A stretch of 64,000 nt of DNA from the NCBI GenBank assembly GCA_964595305.1, contig CAZQPW010000001.1, positions 9,722 through 73,721 on the forward strand, given 5' to 3'. Positions 4,271 through 24,070 of this stretch are shown here, one piece after another (the stretch's first letter is position 1; each line of letters begins with the position of its first letter). A program made the position numbers and the translations under genes. The notes under the pieces were generated by a model. The model saw nothing but the letters and a program-made list of their open reading frames with translations, made no database searches and had not been told where the DNA came from. The DNA comes from an uncultured Candidatus Saccharibacteria bacterium (GTDB taxonomy: Bacteria; Patescibacteriota; Minisyncoccia; Phycocordibacterales; Phycocordibacteraceae).

Positions 4271-5512
4271 ATGGCCAAAAAGTCCAAGAAGCAGCGCAAA
4301 GTGTCAAAAAAGAAGACTCTCTCAAAAAAAGGGAAAAAGCCGCGATCCATAAAACGCGCACATCCAAAGCGTAAGATTTCAAAAAAGGCGCCTGCAAAAA
4401 AGCAGCAAAAGAAGGCTCCGGTAAAAAAGCTTTCAGATAAGCAACGCGCACTCGACACTAAGGCAACAAATCTAATTTCTCGTGGGAAACAGCGTGGTTA
4501 TATTACCTACAACGAAATTCTTAAAGAGTTCCCGACTATCGAAGAGAACGTGATGTTCCTCGAGGAGCTGTACGAGCGCCTCTCGGTAGCAGGCGTCGAC
4601 GTTCTTGAGTCAGGCGGTATGCTAGACGAGGTTCCAGACGACGTCGTGATGCGCGGTTCTTATCGCGGAGATAGCGGAGGGCACGACTCAATCCAAATGT
4701 ACTTGCGCGAGATAGGGCAGTACCCACTACTCTCTGGTCAAGAAGAGCGCGACTTGGCAAAACGTATCCAGAATGGGGATAAAGAAGCAGAGACACTTTT
4801 AGCGCGAGCAAACCTTCGCCTCGTGGTTTCAATTGCAAAAAAATACTCAAACCGCTCTAGCGACTTAACCTTACTTGACCTTATTCAAGAGGGGAATATG
4901 GGGCTGTTCCGTGCGGTTACCAAATTCGACTTTACAAAGGGATTTAAGTTTTCCACCTATGCGACGTGGTGGATACGTCAAGCGATAACACGTGCCCTTG
5001 CAGACCAGTCTCGAACTATACGTATCCCAGTGCACATGGTTGAGACGATCGCAAAGTATAAACAAGTCATGCGCAGACTTGAGCAAGACCTCGGGCGAGA
5101 CCCAATGCCCGAAGAAGTCGCAACAGAAATGGGAGTTGAGGTAGACAAAGTGTATCAAATTGAGCAGATCAACCAGGAGACGTTGTCTCTTGAGGCGCCA
5201 ATTACAACAGGTGACGATGAAGATGCTTCCCAGCGTGCTGACTTTGTCGCAGACCACACACTCCCATCGCCAGACCAAGAAACTGCACACCGGATCCTTG
5301 TGGACCAACTCGGAGAAATTATGGATGATCTCTCACCAAAAGAGCGCAAGATCCTCGGAATGCGTCACGGGCTCGATGACGGGGTTTACCATACGCTTGA
5401 GGAGGTAGGACAAGAGTTCGGGGTAACTCGTGAGCGCATCCGACAAATCGAAGCAAAAGCTCTCGATAAAATACGCACACACCAGAAATCCCGTCGCCTA
5501 AAAAGCTACTAA
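4271..5512 (+). CDS. rpoD: RNA polymerase sigma-70 factor (primary sigma) with ~55-aa lysine-rich N-terminal tail
   Basis: Region 2 ('[40 protein letters not shown]'), region 3 and region 4 ('[24 protein letters not shown]'). The N-terminus '[26 protein letters not shown]...' is K-rich. Confidence 0.9.
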
Positions 5513-22783: not shown

Positions 22784-23230
22784 TTACATCATCCCACCTT
22801 TCTTCATTTTTTTGTCGAGGGAAAGCTCGCCCCCGCCAGTCATGATGAGGGAAAGTCCAACGAGCGCCCACAATATATTGTATTCGTAACCATACGTAGC
22901 TCCTGAGATATAAAACCCACTCGCCATATGAACGGTGACAAATGCAACTATGCCGACGATAACGACAAACTTTGATGCCCAGTGCACACAAAGTCCAATG
23001 ATAAGCAGGATACCTGCAAGTAGTTCGCCGTACGAAAGTATATATGCCATAACTTCGGGAGCAGGGATGTGTAGTGACCCCAAGAACCCTGTGACCCCCT
23101 GGATGCCGAGCACGGTTATCTTCTGCCAACCATGCATAAGGAATATAACACCAAGCCATACTCGCAAAATTGTTGGAGCGTAGCTCGCATATTTATCAAG
23201 GCACATACATTTATTAAGTTTGTCCATCAT
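22784..23230 (-). CDS. DoxX-family membrane protein
   Basis: 'YAPTILRVWLGVIFLMHGWQK' and four TM helices. Confidence 0.75.
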   Translation of the reverse strand: MMDKLNKCMCLDKYASYAPTILRVWLGVIFLMHGWQKITVLGIQGVTGFLGSLHIPAPEVMAYILSYGELLAGILLIIGLCVHWASKFVVIVGIVAFVTVHMASGFYISGATYGYEYNILWALVGLSLIMTGGGELSLDKKMKKGGMM

Positions 23231-23306
23231 AGATATTAAAATACTAATTAGTAATACTACACAGTATATACCTTTTTATTCGTTTTGTGGTAAAGTTAGC
23301 ATAAAT

Positions 23307-23377
23307 TCCGGGTTCGTTTAACGGTAGGAAAGCGGCGTTTGTAGCCTTTAATTGGGGTTCGAGTCCCTGGCCCGGAA
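23307..23377 (+). tRNA. tRNA-like gene (good acceptor stem and T-arm; D and anticodon arms non-canonical, anticodon not assignable by eye)
   Basis: 5' 'TCCGGGT' pairs with 3' 'GCCCGGA'. T-loop 'TTCGAGT' with stem TGGGG/CCCTG. D-loop carries 'AACGGTA'. The reverse complement is not tRNA-like. Confidence 0.4.
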
Positions 23378-23513
23378 CTAGAAACTGCTAGCGCGTGCTG
23401 CGAAGCAGTATGCGCGCCCAGTTTCTTTTCGGACAGGGACGAGAAAGCCGGAGCGCAATGAGCGTAGCGAAGCGCGAGGCGGGGTCGCGACCGAACGCAG
23501 TGAGAGTTGTGAC

Positions 23514-23530
23514 CGAGTCCCTGGCCCGGA
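23514..23530 (+). repeat. 17-nt direct repeat of the tRNA-like 3' end ('CGAGTCCCTGGCCCGGA')
   Basis: Exact copy of 23360-23376, 137 nt downstream of the tRNA-like 3' end. The spacer carries two 'GCGAAGC' mini-hairpin motifs (23400-23406, 23467-23473) and a GCGCG...CGCGC hairpin. Confidence 0.8.
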
Positions 23531-23551
23531 GCAGACAAATCTGGTGGAAAT

Positions 23552-23601
23552 GACCCATTCCCGTCCAAAATTGATACTAAAACGAACTCAAAAACCTCTG
23601 G
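23552..23601 (+). repeat. Imperfect direct repeat A (~50 bp, ~80% identical to 24020-24070)
   Basis: 'GACCCATTCCCGTCCAAAATTGATACTAAAACGAACTCAAAAACCTCTGG' versus 'GACCCATCTCCGTCCAAAATTTCTACTCAAAGTCGCTCAAAACCCTTATGG'. Confidence 0.7.
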
Positions 23602-23644: not shown

Positions 23645-23983
23645 ATGTGGATTAGCAGCCCTTATCTGTTTTATGGCGTAGTGCTCTCGCTCCCATTTGC
23701 GATCGCGAACGCGCTTGTCGTGCTGAAATCGGAACTTTTCCTTTCTCTCTTACGCCCCTTCGGGACAACGACGGGATACGAGCAGGTACTCGTCCTCACC
23801 CTTATCACACTTGTCGGTGTCGGCGGCTTGGTAACATTAGTGCCGCTTTTGAGAGAAAAAAAGTTATATGTGGTAAATGCGATTATAGGAGTCGGATTTA
23901 TCATCTTCGCCCTCTTTGCCGGATATGGGCTCGGCGTCGACGTGTACCACTGCGACATCCTCAAAATTCCGAATTGCGATTAA
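23645..23983 (+). CDS. Small membrane protein (3 TM), hypothetical
   Basis: 112-aa hydrophobic ORF bracketed by the 50-bp imperfect direct repeats. Confidence 0.4.
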   Translation: MWISSPYLFYGVVLSLPFAIANALVVLKSELFLSLLRPFGTTTGYEQVLVLTLITLVGVGGLVTLVPLLREKKLYVVNAIIGVGFIIFALFAGYGLGVDVYHCDILKIPNCD

Positions 23984-24019
23984 TCAGTGGGTAGAGCAGA
24001 AACTTGATCGGAATCAATC

Positions 24020-24070
24020 GACCCATCTCCGTCCAAAATTTCTACTCAAAGTCGCTCAAAACCCTTATGG
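24020..24070 (+). repeat. Imperfect direct repeat B (partner of 23552-23601)
   Basis: See repeat A. Confidence 0.7.

Follow-up and report, generated by a model that had tools for sequence, protein, structure and literature searches.

The window analysed, a stretch of 64,000 nucleotides, contains a single tRNA gene, which ARAGORN identified as tRNA-Gln(UUG) on the + strand (23307-23378). The gene is located downstream of dnaX, as is tRNA-Gln in the related loci L004 and L006; at locus L009, tRNA-Gln lies beside dnaX but on the opposite strand. The genes upstream of the module described below are dnaX and DoxX. The DnaX homologues place the window in Patescibacteria/Parcubacteria, on a Parcubacteria-like CPR chromosome, the nearest relative showing only ~63% DnaX identity. 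A DnaX scan of assembled genome contigs confirmed no relative, and look-ups for proteins identical to the DoxX and DnaX of the window returned no record. A cyanobacterial origin was rejected, as the HIP1 motif (GCGATCGC) is not enriched and the DnaX homologues point to Patescibacteria/Parcubacteria. A phage origin was also rejected, megablast of 3 kb against phage records giving no match and the PHROG matches being housekeeping homologues.

The tRNA-Gln folds into a cloverleaf with a 7-nt anticodon loop and contains the U1-A72 pair. It is degenerate, with G10-A25 and C28-U42 mismatches, G32, and U37, and it carries four changes at sites that are otherwise invariant (22 distinct clade sequences). 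The Rfam tRNA model (RF00005) gave 23307-23377 a score of 26.0 bits (E 0.003), which falls short of the gathering score of 29; the tRNA-Gln genes of relatives reach 52-61 bits overall and the canonical genes of L004 and L006 56-61 bits. The NC marks of the Rfam alignment are located in the D and anticodon stems, indicating that the irregularity of this region, proposed in a previous sequence-only reading of the locus, is real. The gene and the module that follows it comprise these parts:

23307-23377, + strand: tRNA-Gln(UUG), including the discriminator A73 at 23377 (ARAGORN and Rfam tRNA alignment)
23360-23376, + strand: copy 1, tRNA positions 56-72 (T-loop C56 to A72), CGAGTCCCTGGCCCGGA (exact 17-mer repeat)
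23380-23430, + strand: X, a long terminator-like hairpin with arms at 23380-23401 and 23405-23426, then TTTCTTTT (inverted repeat, fold)
23428-23445, + strand: anticopy, a degenerate reverse complement of tRNA positions 54-73 (MFE pairing with copy 2)
23447-23480, + strand: P3 hairpin, with base G-C-C / G-G-C, internal loop GGAG / CGA, and tip GCGTAGC (fold)
23483-23514, + strand: P4 hairpin, closed by GGTC / GACC and containing two G-T/U pairs (fold)
23514-23531, + strand: copy 2, identical to copy 1 (23514-23530), plus G at the discriminator position (23531) (exact repeat)

The 17-mer CGAGTCCCTGGCCCGGA occurs exactly at 23360-23376 and 23514-23530, and no third site was found in the window even at 3 mismatches. 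The expected count was 0.04 and none of 100 shuffles contained two matches. The direct copies are 154 nt apart from start to start with 137 nt between them, as had been reported from the sequence. The GCGCG...CGCGC hairpin noted at that stage turned out to be part of the inverted repeat with 22-nt arms that forms X, which is closed by a GAA triloop within GCGAAGC at 23400; a second GCGAAGC is present in P3 at 23467, so that both previously noted copies of this motif were recovered. X was not listed by a simple terminator scan because its stem is longer than, and interrupted relative to, the scan rule. The anticopy (23428-23445), which repeats the tRNA 3' end a third time, in inverted and degenerate form, had been overlooked. 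Its sequence, TTCGGACAGGGACGAGAA, matches the perfect reverse complement, TTCCGGGCCAGGGACTCGAA, at about 15 of 20 positions. The anticopy provides the 5' strand of stems P1 and P2 and copy 2, at a distance of 68 nt, the 3' strand of P2 and P1; P4 adjoins P2 without a linker. The presumed native flank begins after copy 2 with GCAGACAAATC. The 203 nt located 3' of the tRNA have a fold z-score of -4.07 as RNA, in agreement with the strong structure attributed to the spacer. Windows of 100 nt with at least 64% G+C were found only at the module stretch and at two other places in the window.

The same arrangement was detected at 12 of 37 dereplicated tRNA-Gln loci from related metagenomic contigs, in the order tRNA, X, anticopy of tRNA positions 54-73, interior Y, direct copy of the tRNA 3' end, and native flank. 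The interior Y spans about 55-115 nt and usually contains two hairpins, and the content between the direct repeats amounts to 137-190 nt across the family. The related loci L024, L026, L032, L038, L055, and L057 stem from the Hainich groundwater wells. The 12 occupied loci carry six different acceptor sequences. Among 11 intact cases, 9 have a copy 2 whose acceptor strand agrees with the local tRNA at every position (7/7), and the anticopy, of consensus CAGGGACTCGAA preceded by the acceptor 5' strand, tracks the local tRNA less exactly. The X-equivalent hairpin, starting at the discriminator, precedes the module at all ten proximal loci. In the 395 kb of DNA examined, the family was restricted to positions downstream of tRNA-Gln, and none of eight other tRNA genes in the related loci was associated with such repeats. 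A strict element pattern searched against assembled genome contigs gave only a chance match in an Acidobacteria coding region, and two element patterns gave no match in viral contigs. The 17-mer itself had three matches in viral contigs, two of them in coding-like high-GC DNA and the third extending over 22 nt to the tRNA end, flanked by short repeats, without a nearby integrase. A literature search retrieved no description of such an element. These results indicate that the module is a previously undescribed, non-coding, hairpin-forming element of about 150 bases that recurs at the end of tRNA-Gln in CPR bacteria. The recurrence bears on two statements of the sequence-only reading. The description of the locus as a scar with almost nothing left between the copies does not hold, since the content is a discrete conserved module with the same parts, shared motifs, and compensatory changes. 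The result that would count against that reading, namely relatives displaying the arrangement as a conserved non-coding RNA, was obtained for one half, the arrangement being conserved; the RNA half is weighed below.

Alignment by MAFFT and RNAalifold recovered P2 alone, as the sequences of the hairpins do not permit alignment, and the evidence for structure consists of per-sequence folds, z-scores, and covariation read at anchored positions. The outer architecture is common to the MFE folds of all 12 elements, with two interior hairpins in most. The terminal inverted ends formed by the anticopy and copy 2 comprise 13-20 bp. P2, which is built from the clade-invariant T-arm, is nearly always intact, and roughly every second element has imperfections in the acceptor half of its anticopy. 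This pattern fits an element-borne arm facing a host-borne arm. The middle base pair of P3 covaries in relatives (C-G, G-C, or A-T), and most relatives possess a P4, the stem sequences of which are unrelated. Purine-rich nucleotides of the junction and internal loops (AAR, GGAG/CGA, RG-GGUCG, and UGACC) are conserved in the interior, whose mean z-score is about -3.5 and lowest -5.7. Most hairpin tips are C-GNA-G triloops or AGCA loops, and GNRA accounts for only 2 of about 37. The + strand RNA is more stable than the - strand RNA in all 12 elements, by a mean of 9 kcal/mol. Family z-scores are alike with RNA (-3.5) and DNA (-3.4) parameters on the + strand and are -2.9 on the - strand. Folded with DNA energy parameters, the window element has a z-score of -0.5 and is no more stable than shuffles.

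Occupied and empty sites, which the sequence-only reading proposed to look for among related genomes, were both found. At L006, the tRNA is directly followed by GCCAGTTTGAGATAGG; at L004, the same flank, 88.7% identical, begins only after copy 2. L004 and L006 are a precise pair of occupied and empty sites. The presence of the native flank after copy 2 in relatives indicates that copy 2 behaves as the displaced, attR-like original 3' end and that the intervening DNA is an insertion. The flank of L046a resembles the native flank of L058 by eye, and BLAST gave no downstream match there. Modules are also replaced: L026 and L046 share a flank at 89.6% identity and harbor different modules, that of L026 resembling the module of L004, whose acceptor differs. 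L029 and L034 share 98% identity until +38 after the tRNA and show no relationship further on; the breakpoint is located within the hairpin. Modules are stacked at L046, L035, and L040, and versions with cargo or stacking occur at L019, L051, L046b, and L035b. The cargo of the window is the terminator alone, and some relatives' modules carry 1.2-1.6 kb of genes; accessory genes encoding NUDIX, Fic, hydrolase, and peptidase proteins come and go at the tRNA-Gln site. Recombinase or integrase Pfam domains were not detected in the window ORFs located between 12.7 and 35.4 kb, i.e. about 10 kb on either side of the module, and at ten related loci no mobility gene was recognized in the first long ORF sampled after the tRNA.

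The window locus can tentatively be regarded as a tRNA-Gln gene with one integrated small non-coding module. The best explanation in our analysis, although it falls short of an even chance, is that this module is a non-autonomous insertion cassette, a single strand of which would fold into a mimic of its tRNA-gene target. The module would consist of X and an element E (154 nt including one repeat), and in Parcubacteria-like CPR bacteria the family would occupy tRNA-Gln genes at the site extending from the T-loop to the 3' end. In this scheme, the 17-nt direct repeat would be the junction repeat: copy 1 would complete the tRNA ahead of the module-borne terminator hairpin, and copy 2 would be the displaced original 3' end with its native flank. 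The single-stranded module may fold by pairing of the anticopy with a copy of the tRNA end, forming a stem that would reproduce the double-stranded tRNA-gene segment, capped by Y (P3 and P4 in the window). A recombinase acting in trans would exchange strands between the folded site and the tRNA gene, and the predicted order of the product, namely functional target copy, cargo, inverted copy, loop, and direct copy, is the one observed at the locus. Homologous recombination anchored on the conserved tRNA body may also aid spread between genomes. The predicted empty site is GGTTCGAGTCCCTGGCCCGGAGCAGACAAATC, and the predicted circle or tandem junction is ...GAGAGTTGTGAC-CGAGTCCCTGGCCCGGA-ACTAGAAACTG.

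Several observations argue for a cassette: the repeat lies far beyond chance, the parts are ordered in the same way in 12/37 loci, a pair of empty and occupied sites exists, modules turn over, and versions with cargo or stacking occur. The shared outer fold, the uniform + strand stability (12/12), and the absence of repeats at the other tRNAs (0/8) point in the same direction, as does the distribution of CCA, which is encoded after copy 2 in 4 of 11 elements, after the tRNA in 11 of the 27 loci that lack a proximal module (25 of the 27 are free of modules and 2 have a distal one), and after copy 1 in only 1 of 10 occupied tRNAs. Other results count against it. Within the scopes searched, no mobility gene, no excised form of the module, and no viral-contig copy were found, and the empty site is known from relatives (nearest ~63% DnaX identity) rather than from the species of the window. 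The DNA z-score of the window element (-0.5) gives no support, and the family z-scores do not discriminate between RNA and DNA. In CUG-type elements, the match of the anticopy to the tRNA is longer than its match to copy 2, which the model does not require. Finally, the conserved interior nucleotides look more like an RNA or protein-binding motif than a mere spacer.

This last feature would be accounted for if E encoded a structured RNA derived from tRNA-Gln and expressed either by read-through from the tRNA or by separate transcription, a possibility that we consider somewhat less probable than a cassette. The transcript would be trimmed by RNase P and the 3' tRNA-processing nuclease, and the three-way junction would carry the function. 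Trimming is conceivable because the terminal helix copies the acceptor stem, with its U1-A72 start, G73, and sometimes an encoded CCA; the acceptor stem of tRNA-Gln would be needed because the same enzymes, e.g. the CCA-adding enzyme or GatCAB/GluRS/GlnRS, recognize both. L004, L035, L040, L043, and L057 have an acceptor 5' strand that agrees exactly with the local tRNA. In L019, copy 2 is identical to the tRNA (17/17) and the adjacent remnant of the old tRNA 3' end has decayed, which indicates purifying selection or conversion acting on E. The compensatory changes in P3 (C-G, G-C, A-T), the conserved position of P4 despite its unrelated sequences, the conserved unpaired junction purines, and the GGAG/CGA loop with its tandem G-A also favor an RNA, as do the greater + strand stability (12/12), the need of the window P4 for G-U pairs, and the contrast between z-scores of -4.07 (RNA fold of the region) and -0.5 (DNA parameters). 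The Y motif GGGGT...CGAGTCCCTG can moreover be read as a T-arm whose loop contains an inserted hairpin. However, a strong terminator-like hairpin and T-run directly precede E in all proximal copies, with no consistent promoter between the hairpin and E. The terminal helix (17-20 bp) is often bulged and its discriminator often paired, whereas tRNA enzymes measure a 12-bp acceptor/T minihelix. The tips, mostly C-GNA-G triloops and AGCA loops with GNRA in 2 of about 37, the absence of an Rfam family match, the absence of the element from two thirds of related genomes, and its swapping between lineages also argue against an RNA.

The direct-inverted-direct triplet might, less plausibly still, be a neutral by-product of replication. 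Template switching at the tRNA terminator hairpin would duplicate the tRNA 3' end first inverted and then direct, as a small DUP-INV-DUP whose three copies would afterwards be kept similar by quasi-palindrome correction, and the block would spread passively because the adjoining conserved tRNA would anchor homology-facilitated illegitimate recombination with incoming DNA. Copy 1, X, and the anticopy indeed form a long near-perfect palindrome that includes the discriminator and its facing C, with arms of 27 nt in L040, and the anticopy matches the tRNA over 19-20 nt, beyond the need for pairing with copy 2. L046, L019, and L051 look like inserts of foreign tRNA-proximal DNA displacing an older tRNA 3' end, the L029/L034 breakpoint lies inside the hairpin, and no mobility gene was found in the regions sampled. 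Such a process leaves unexplained the conserved Y, with its motifs and compensatory pairs across hosts at ~63% DnaX identity and z-scores down to -5.7, the recurrence of identical boundaries, and the restriction to tRNA-Gln, other tRNAs with terminators lacking the triplet (0/8). Least probable in our estimation, and held to be very unlikely, is the interpretation of the sequence-only reading, namely a double-strand attL/attR scar of a tyrosine-integrase island in tRNA-Gln, the content of which was nearly all deleted. The att-like character of the repeats stands: the identity block extends from the T-loop to the tRNA 3' end (position 72), the native flank follows copy 2 in relatives, the direct repeat (17/17) and the flanks of L006 and L004 are as in an attL/attR island, and one viral contig contains the 22-nt tRNA-end match flanked by short repeats. 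The island itself does not: no integrase was found in the regions sampled, even in cargo-bearing versions, a lambda-type att scar does not explain the inverted copy, and independent deletions would not leave the same 137-190 nt of content in a dozen lineages.

The cassette reading invites comparison with two systems, integron attC x attI and CTX attP(+) x dif recombination, in which strand exchange proceeds via a folded single-strand site. The CTX phage contains two inverted dif-like sites about 90 bp apart that form a 150-nt hairpin in the (+) ssDNA, and its integration leaves one functional and two non-functional sites (PMC3089051). Similarly, the module has inverted target-like copies (separated by 68 nt in the window and by about 55-115 nt in relatives) and a forked hairpin of ~150 nt that would mimic the target; as in the CTX IMEX, the element encodes no recombinase and the integrated state comprises one functional and two non-functional copies. 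Unlike CTX, the target is tRNA-Gln (positions 54/56-73) rather than dif, no XerCD-type 11-6-11 site is recognizable, phage genes are not adjacent, the commonest form carries the terminator hairpin alone, and the ssDNA stage and the recombinase are inferred. The module resembles integron cassettes in having a fixed site, a content, and an imperfect hairpin ending in a junction copy, in being ORF-less or carrying small accessory genes, and in being stackable (L046, L035, L040). As in attC sites, structure is kept more than sequence and bulged bases are present on one arm, and, as in CALIN arrays, there is no adjacent integrase (no tyrosine recombinase within about 10 kb of the module). In contrast to attC, the R''/R' cores (RYYYAAC / GTTRRRY) and AAC...GTT are lacking, the acceptor 5' strand and CAGGGACTCG occupying one end of the module, and CGAGTCCCTG and the acceptor 3' strand the other. 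The 17-nt tRNA-derived repeat, the conserved interior motifs, and the failure to find IntI or an attI-Pc platform also distinguish the module from integrons.

Islands reportedly occupy the T-loop sublocation of tRNA genes, for which T-loop to position 72 is the expected block. The module shares with tRNA islands and CIME-type (cis-mobilizable) remnants, including streptococcal CIMEs, a T-loop-to-3'-end repeat, a tRNA regenerated by incoming sequence, a native flank after the distal repeat, and the lack of a recombination gene between the repeats. It differs from them by its far smaller size (137-190 nt between the repeats), the content conserved across lineages, and the third, inverted att copy; no autonomous element related to the module was found. 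Like the tRNA-like RNAs (tmRNA domain, YrlA, viral TLS), it has a terminal helix that copies an acceptor stem, onto which the 3' strand of the T-stem is stacked, followed by a discriminator and in some cases CCA; unlike them, it has no intact T hairpin, no anticodon-arm analogue, and a helix of 17-20 bp rather than 12 bp. ARAGORN detected no tmRNA, and Rfam gave no match to YrlA, tmRNA, or TLS. Rfam 15 assigned no family at gathering score to the window or to 14 loci, and at E up to 10 or 1 the long palindrome attracted only chance-level AfaR, Vault, and miRNA-precursor models. A known RNA or ribozyme was rejected on the lack of a tmRNA, SRP, YrlA, hammerhead, or other ribozyme match. A MITE was also rejected: terminal inverted repeats of 13-20 bp are present, but the 64-kb window contains one copy and no dispersed copies. 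An intron-containing tRNA (group I or archaeal-type T-loop), raised as an alternative in the sequence-only reading, was discarded, the tRNA being complete without splicing and neither ARAGORN nor Rfam reporting an intron. Group I introns are longer than the 154 nt available here.

CPR bacteria account for a large share of bacterial diversity, have tiny genomes, and acquire genes in ways that are little known. The module marks a strain-variable site beside a conserved tRNA gene. It is conceivable, if rather doubtful, that these bacteria own a tRNA-anchored cassette system without associated integrase, with the T-loop-to-3'-end of tRNA-Gln as fixed acceptor, or else a new class of tRNA-Gln acceptor-mimic RNAs. 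In the former case, cassettes ranging from a bare terminator up to 1-2 kb of accessory genes would be inserted via a folded single-stranded hairpin site. Recombination at single-strand hairpins, so far described for integrons (attC) and Xer-exploiting phages (CTX attP(+)), would then have a third independent instance, located in a new phylum and directed for the first time at a tRNA gene; the recognition principle would be compact and programmable-looking because the site copies its target. In the latter case, the family would define a new class of tRNA-derived structured RNAs with a defined junction motif. Under either reading, the arrangement provides a clean, searchable signature for surveys of CPR genomes. 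A spurious 90-aa ORF on the - strand (23296-23568) overlies the hairpin module, and gene callers may therefore mis-annotate this stretch.

The 17-nt 3' end of the tRNA-Gln gene of the window (copy 1, CGAGTCCCTGGCCCGGA, tRNA positions 56-72) recurs exactly at 23514-23530 (copy 2), as the sequence-only reading had noticed. No further occurrence was found in the window, even allowing three mismatches, and two matches were obtained in 0 of 100 shuffles. The repeat is firmly established as real. The strong structure attributed to the spacer was also borne out, as the stretch contains a hairpin with 22-nt arms, GCGAAGC at both 23400 and 23467, and, after the tRNA, an RNA fold with a z-score of -4.07. 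The fold revealed a component overlooked in the sequence-only reading, a degenerate inverted copy of the tRNA 3' end (anticopy), which pairs with copy 2, so that 23427-23531 forms a single long branched hairpin. In G+C content the stretch ranks with the highest in the window; at least 64% G+C over 100 nt is reached here and in only two other places.

Features of the tRNA-Gln locus.
23307-23378, + strand: tRNA-Gln(UUG), the sole tRNA called in the window (ARAGORN)
23360-23376: copy 1, 3' end of the tRNA
23380-23426: hairpin X, 22-nt arms followed by a T-run, directly 3' of the tRNA
23428-23445: anticopy, degenerate inverted tRNA 3' end, TTCGGACAGGGACGAGAA
23514-23530: copy 2, direct repeat

The T-arm and acceptor stem of the tRNA are intact and its D and anticodon regions irregular, in agreement with the earlier description. 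Positions 23307-23377 reached only 26 bits with the Rfam tRNA model, under its gathering score of 29 bits and under the 56-61 bits of the intact tRNA-Gln genes of relatives; both the D and the anticodon stem have non-canonical pairs. Four changes (C12T, C25A, C32G, and purine-37 to U) affect positions invariant in 22 distinct clade sequences. The gene may be in decay, or it may be a peculiarity of the lineage.

The neighbors are housekeeping genes encoding Dus, a DNA polymerase III clamp-loader subunit (DnaX family), DoxX, NUDIX/NADAR proteins, and the ATP synthase operon. The nearest non-identical relatives of the DnaX protein (about 63% identity) are labelled Patescibacteria, Parcubacteria, or Paceibacteria. 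Three relatives have in common with the window the upstream order ABC transporter, DUF1993, methyltransferase, DsbB, Dus, and dnaX, followed by tRNA-Gln(UUG), beyond which synteny is lost. The gene between dnaX and the tRNA encodes DoxX in the window (22784-23230, - strand) and a histidine phosphatase in L004, and is missing in L006 (L numbers designate metagenomic or viral contig loci compared with the window; a suffix, as in L046a, distinguishes modules on one locus). In L009, AhpC is encoded at this position and the tRNA is inverted. Thus, both sides of tRNA-Gln are variable.

A metagenome scan with the clade tRNA-Gln T-arm provided 47 loci, of which 37 had enough downstream sequence after dereplication. 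Twelve of the 37 contained the same module, directly after the tRNA in ten cases and 1.2-1.3 kb downstream in L019 and L051; the hosts included both isoacceptors, UUG and CUG. No copy or anticopy of the gene's own 3' end lay within 400 nt of any of eight other tRNA genes on the examined loci, and no module-like sequence was detected elsewhere in the window or on viral contigs. The module of the window and related loci matched no Rfam family, sub-threshold matches on the palindrome of L040 being limited to miRNA-precursor models, and no description of such an element was found in the literature searched. The repeat is firmly placed within a conserved, structured, non-coding module that is, so far, specific to the tRNA-Gln genes of this CPR clade.

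The order of the parts is tRNA, X, anticopy, interior Y, copy 2, and native flank. The terminator-like hairpin X extends from the discriminator to a T-run. The anticopy corresponds to tRNA positions 54-73 in reverse complement and comprises a C opposite G73, then the acceptor 5' strand of the tRNA and CAGGGACTCGAA; five elements harbor an extra hairpin between the acceptor part and CAGGG. Since the anticopy is also complementary to copy 1, copy 1, X, and the anticopy constitute a long palindrome, with arms of 27 nt in L040. Y (about 55-115 nt) mostly contains two hairpins, P3 and P4, which form a three-way junction with P2, one of the outer stems (P1/P2) made by the anticopy and copy 2; the linkers are AAR, RG, and none. 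The base of P3 comprises 3 bp, the middle pair being C-G, G-C, or A-T depending on the lineage, and P3 also has a GGAG/CGA internal loop. P4 is closed by GGTC/GACC, or elsewhere by GTCC/GGAC or GGCC/GGCC, the remaining stem being unrelated between lineages. Copy 2 consists of CGAGTCCCTG, the local acceptor 3' strand (GCCCGGA, TTCCCCA, TCGGGCA, ACCGGCA, TCCCCAA, or CCCGGCA by lineage), and N73, and agrees with the local tRNA in nearly all cases. About half of the elements have bulges or mismatches in the acceptor half of the anticopy, which in some lineages is exact. L004 has an acceptor stem different from that of the window and the same layout: tRNA (...TTCCCCA-G), hairpin, TGGGGAA-AGGGACTCG, about 110 nt, CGAG-CCCTGTTCCCCA-G, and CCAGTTTGAGATAGG.

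Comparison of related loci firmly identified the module as an insertion relative to empty sites, exchanged between lineages. In L006, a relative of L004, the tRNA is directly followed by G-CCAGTTTGAGATAGG, without module; L004 and L006 are a precise occupied/empty pair, the comparison that the sequence-only reading had called for. L026 and L046 harbor different modules between flanks that are 89.6% identical, and the L026 and L004 modules, which serve different acceptors, are about 71% identical. L029 and L034 are 98% identical to 38 nt beyond the tRNA, inside X, and unrelated thereafter, L034 retaining an orphan half of the X outer stem. By eye, the flank of L046a is similar to the native one of L058, but BLAST gave no downstream match between these loci. 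Three loci (L019, L051, and L046) have 1.2-1.6 kb of genes (hydrolase, PspC-like, DHFR-like, unknown) downstream of an intact tRNA; behind these genes come a decayed remnant of a tRNA 3' end, X, and then anticopy, Y, and copy 2. Copy 2 of L019 is identical to the tRNA at 17 of 17 positions while the remnant has decayed. Of the 27 loci lacking a proximal module (25 have no module and 2 a distal one), 11 encode CCA after the tRNA. CCA is encoded after copy 2 in 4 of 11 elements, but among ten occupied tRNAs only one has it after copy 1; this trend fits copy 2 as the original gene end. In L043 (+1 to +210 after the tRNA), the direct repeat spans about 80 nt rather than 17 and takes in the 17 nt, X, the acceptor 5' strand, and one half of the extra hairpin, as expected from recombination anywhere in a longer shared segment or from tandem duplication.

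Independent folds revealed the same outer architecture in 12 of 12 elements and two interior hairpins in most. Y alone, as + strand RNA, had z-scores of -1.0 to -5.8 (mean -3.5). The + strand, which is purine-rich, was the more stable as RNA in all 12 elements (mean difference of 9 kcal/mol) and had 44 G-U pairs versus 24 for the - strand. Relative to shuffles, z-scores were much alike for the two strands and for RNA and DNA parameters, and the window element was not significant with DNA parameters. Hairpin tips are chiefly C-GNA-G triloops and AGCA loops, GNRA being rare. Stability and G-U pairing suggest that the functional strand is probably the tRNA-sense strand, as RNA or single-stranded DNA.

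The module may be a new variety of tRNA-targeted insertion or hairpin recombination site or, alternatively, a new tRNA-derived RNA. We tentatively rank first a cassette mobilized in trans through a hairpin site, because the order of parts is that left by recombination between a folded hairpin and double-stranded DNA. A folded single-stranded site would recombine with the double-stranded tRNA gene, generating the functional target copy, cargo, inverted copy, loop, direct copy, and native flank. Integron attC x attI recombination leaves such an order. CTX phage does likewise: its two inverted dif-like sites, separated by about 90 bp, form a 150-nt hairpin, and one functional site and two non-functional sites remain after integration (PMC3089051).

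A structured RNA derived from tRNA-Gln comes close behind, as a possible but less probable reading, owing to the conserved purine-rich junction and to the absence of any recombinase, transposase, or reverse transcriptase gene near the copies (12.7-35.4 kb of the window; first long ORF sampled downstream of the tRNA at ten related loci). A neutral origin by template switching, with spread through tRNA-anchored recombination, appears unlikely. The simple integrase scar proposed in the sequence-only reading is the least probable: its att-like part holds, in view of the tRNA-end repeat and the L006/L004 pair, but a scar does not account for a conserved structured module in 12 of 37 loci.

The module copy of the window looks old. 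Its tRNA has the four changes at clade-invariant positions noted above, among them U at position 37. Its anticopy matches at only about 15 of 20 positions, P2 is shortened to 7 bp by GACGAG in place of GACTCG, as in L029, and P1 needs two G-U pairs. Copies 1 and 2 are still identical at 17 of 17 positions despite this decay. Copy 1 is followed by A and copy 2 by G as the discriminator, and the T preceding the anticopy fits A73 of copy 1. A 90-aa TTG-start ORF (23296-23568, - strand) overlapping the tRNA and the whole module is almost certainly spurious, though it could be called in automatic annotation. A 112-aa ORF (23645-23983) lies between the two units of an imperfect direct repeat of about 75 nt (23531-23600 and 23993-24066; about 78% identity over 46 nt), the first of which starts right after copy 2 of the tRNA end. 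This arrangement looks like an additional small insertion or duplication within the variable islet (23.5-26.0 kb) that separates tRNA-Gln from the atp operon.

L001, a high-GC viral contig (IMGVR_UViG_3300044673_000097), has 22 nt in common with the window (4469-4490, - strand; CGAGTCCCTGGCCCGGAACTAG), namely the 17-mer, A73, and the CTAG opening hairpin X. The match is bounded on either side by short repeats of the CCCTCGCGAGAC type, with no tRNA at the match and no integrase domain in the adjoining ORFs. In L024 (70-165), L031, and L055, tRNA-Gln is immediately followed by an insert of another kind, about 95 nt long and rich in G+C and purines (GAGCGAAGG..., GTACTGAG, hairpins tipped with CAGCAG). 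This insert lacks the tRNA-end repeat and precedes the native flank (GCCAGTTTGAAATAG in L024); it may represent a second small-element family at the same site. Rfam also identified a LOOT RNA (RF03000, 62 bits) in L029 (2403-2521), about 660 nt downstream of tRNA-Gln, and a SAM riboswitch in L035 (3070-3173). In L027 (867-961), ARAGORN called a 95-nt 'tRNA-Asn(att)' with an ACCA end, which may be an intron-containing or tRNA-like gene.
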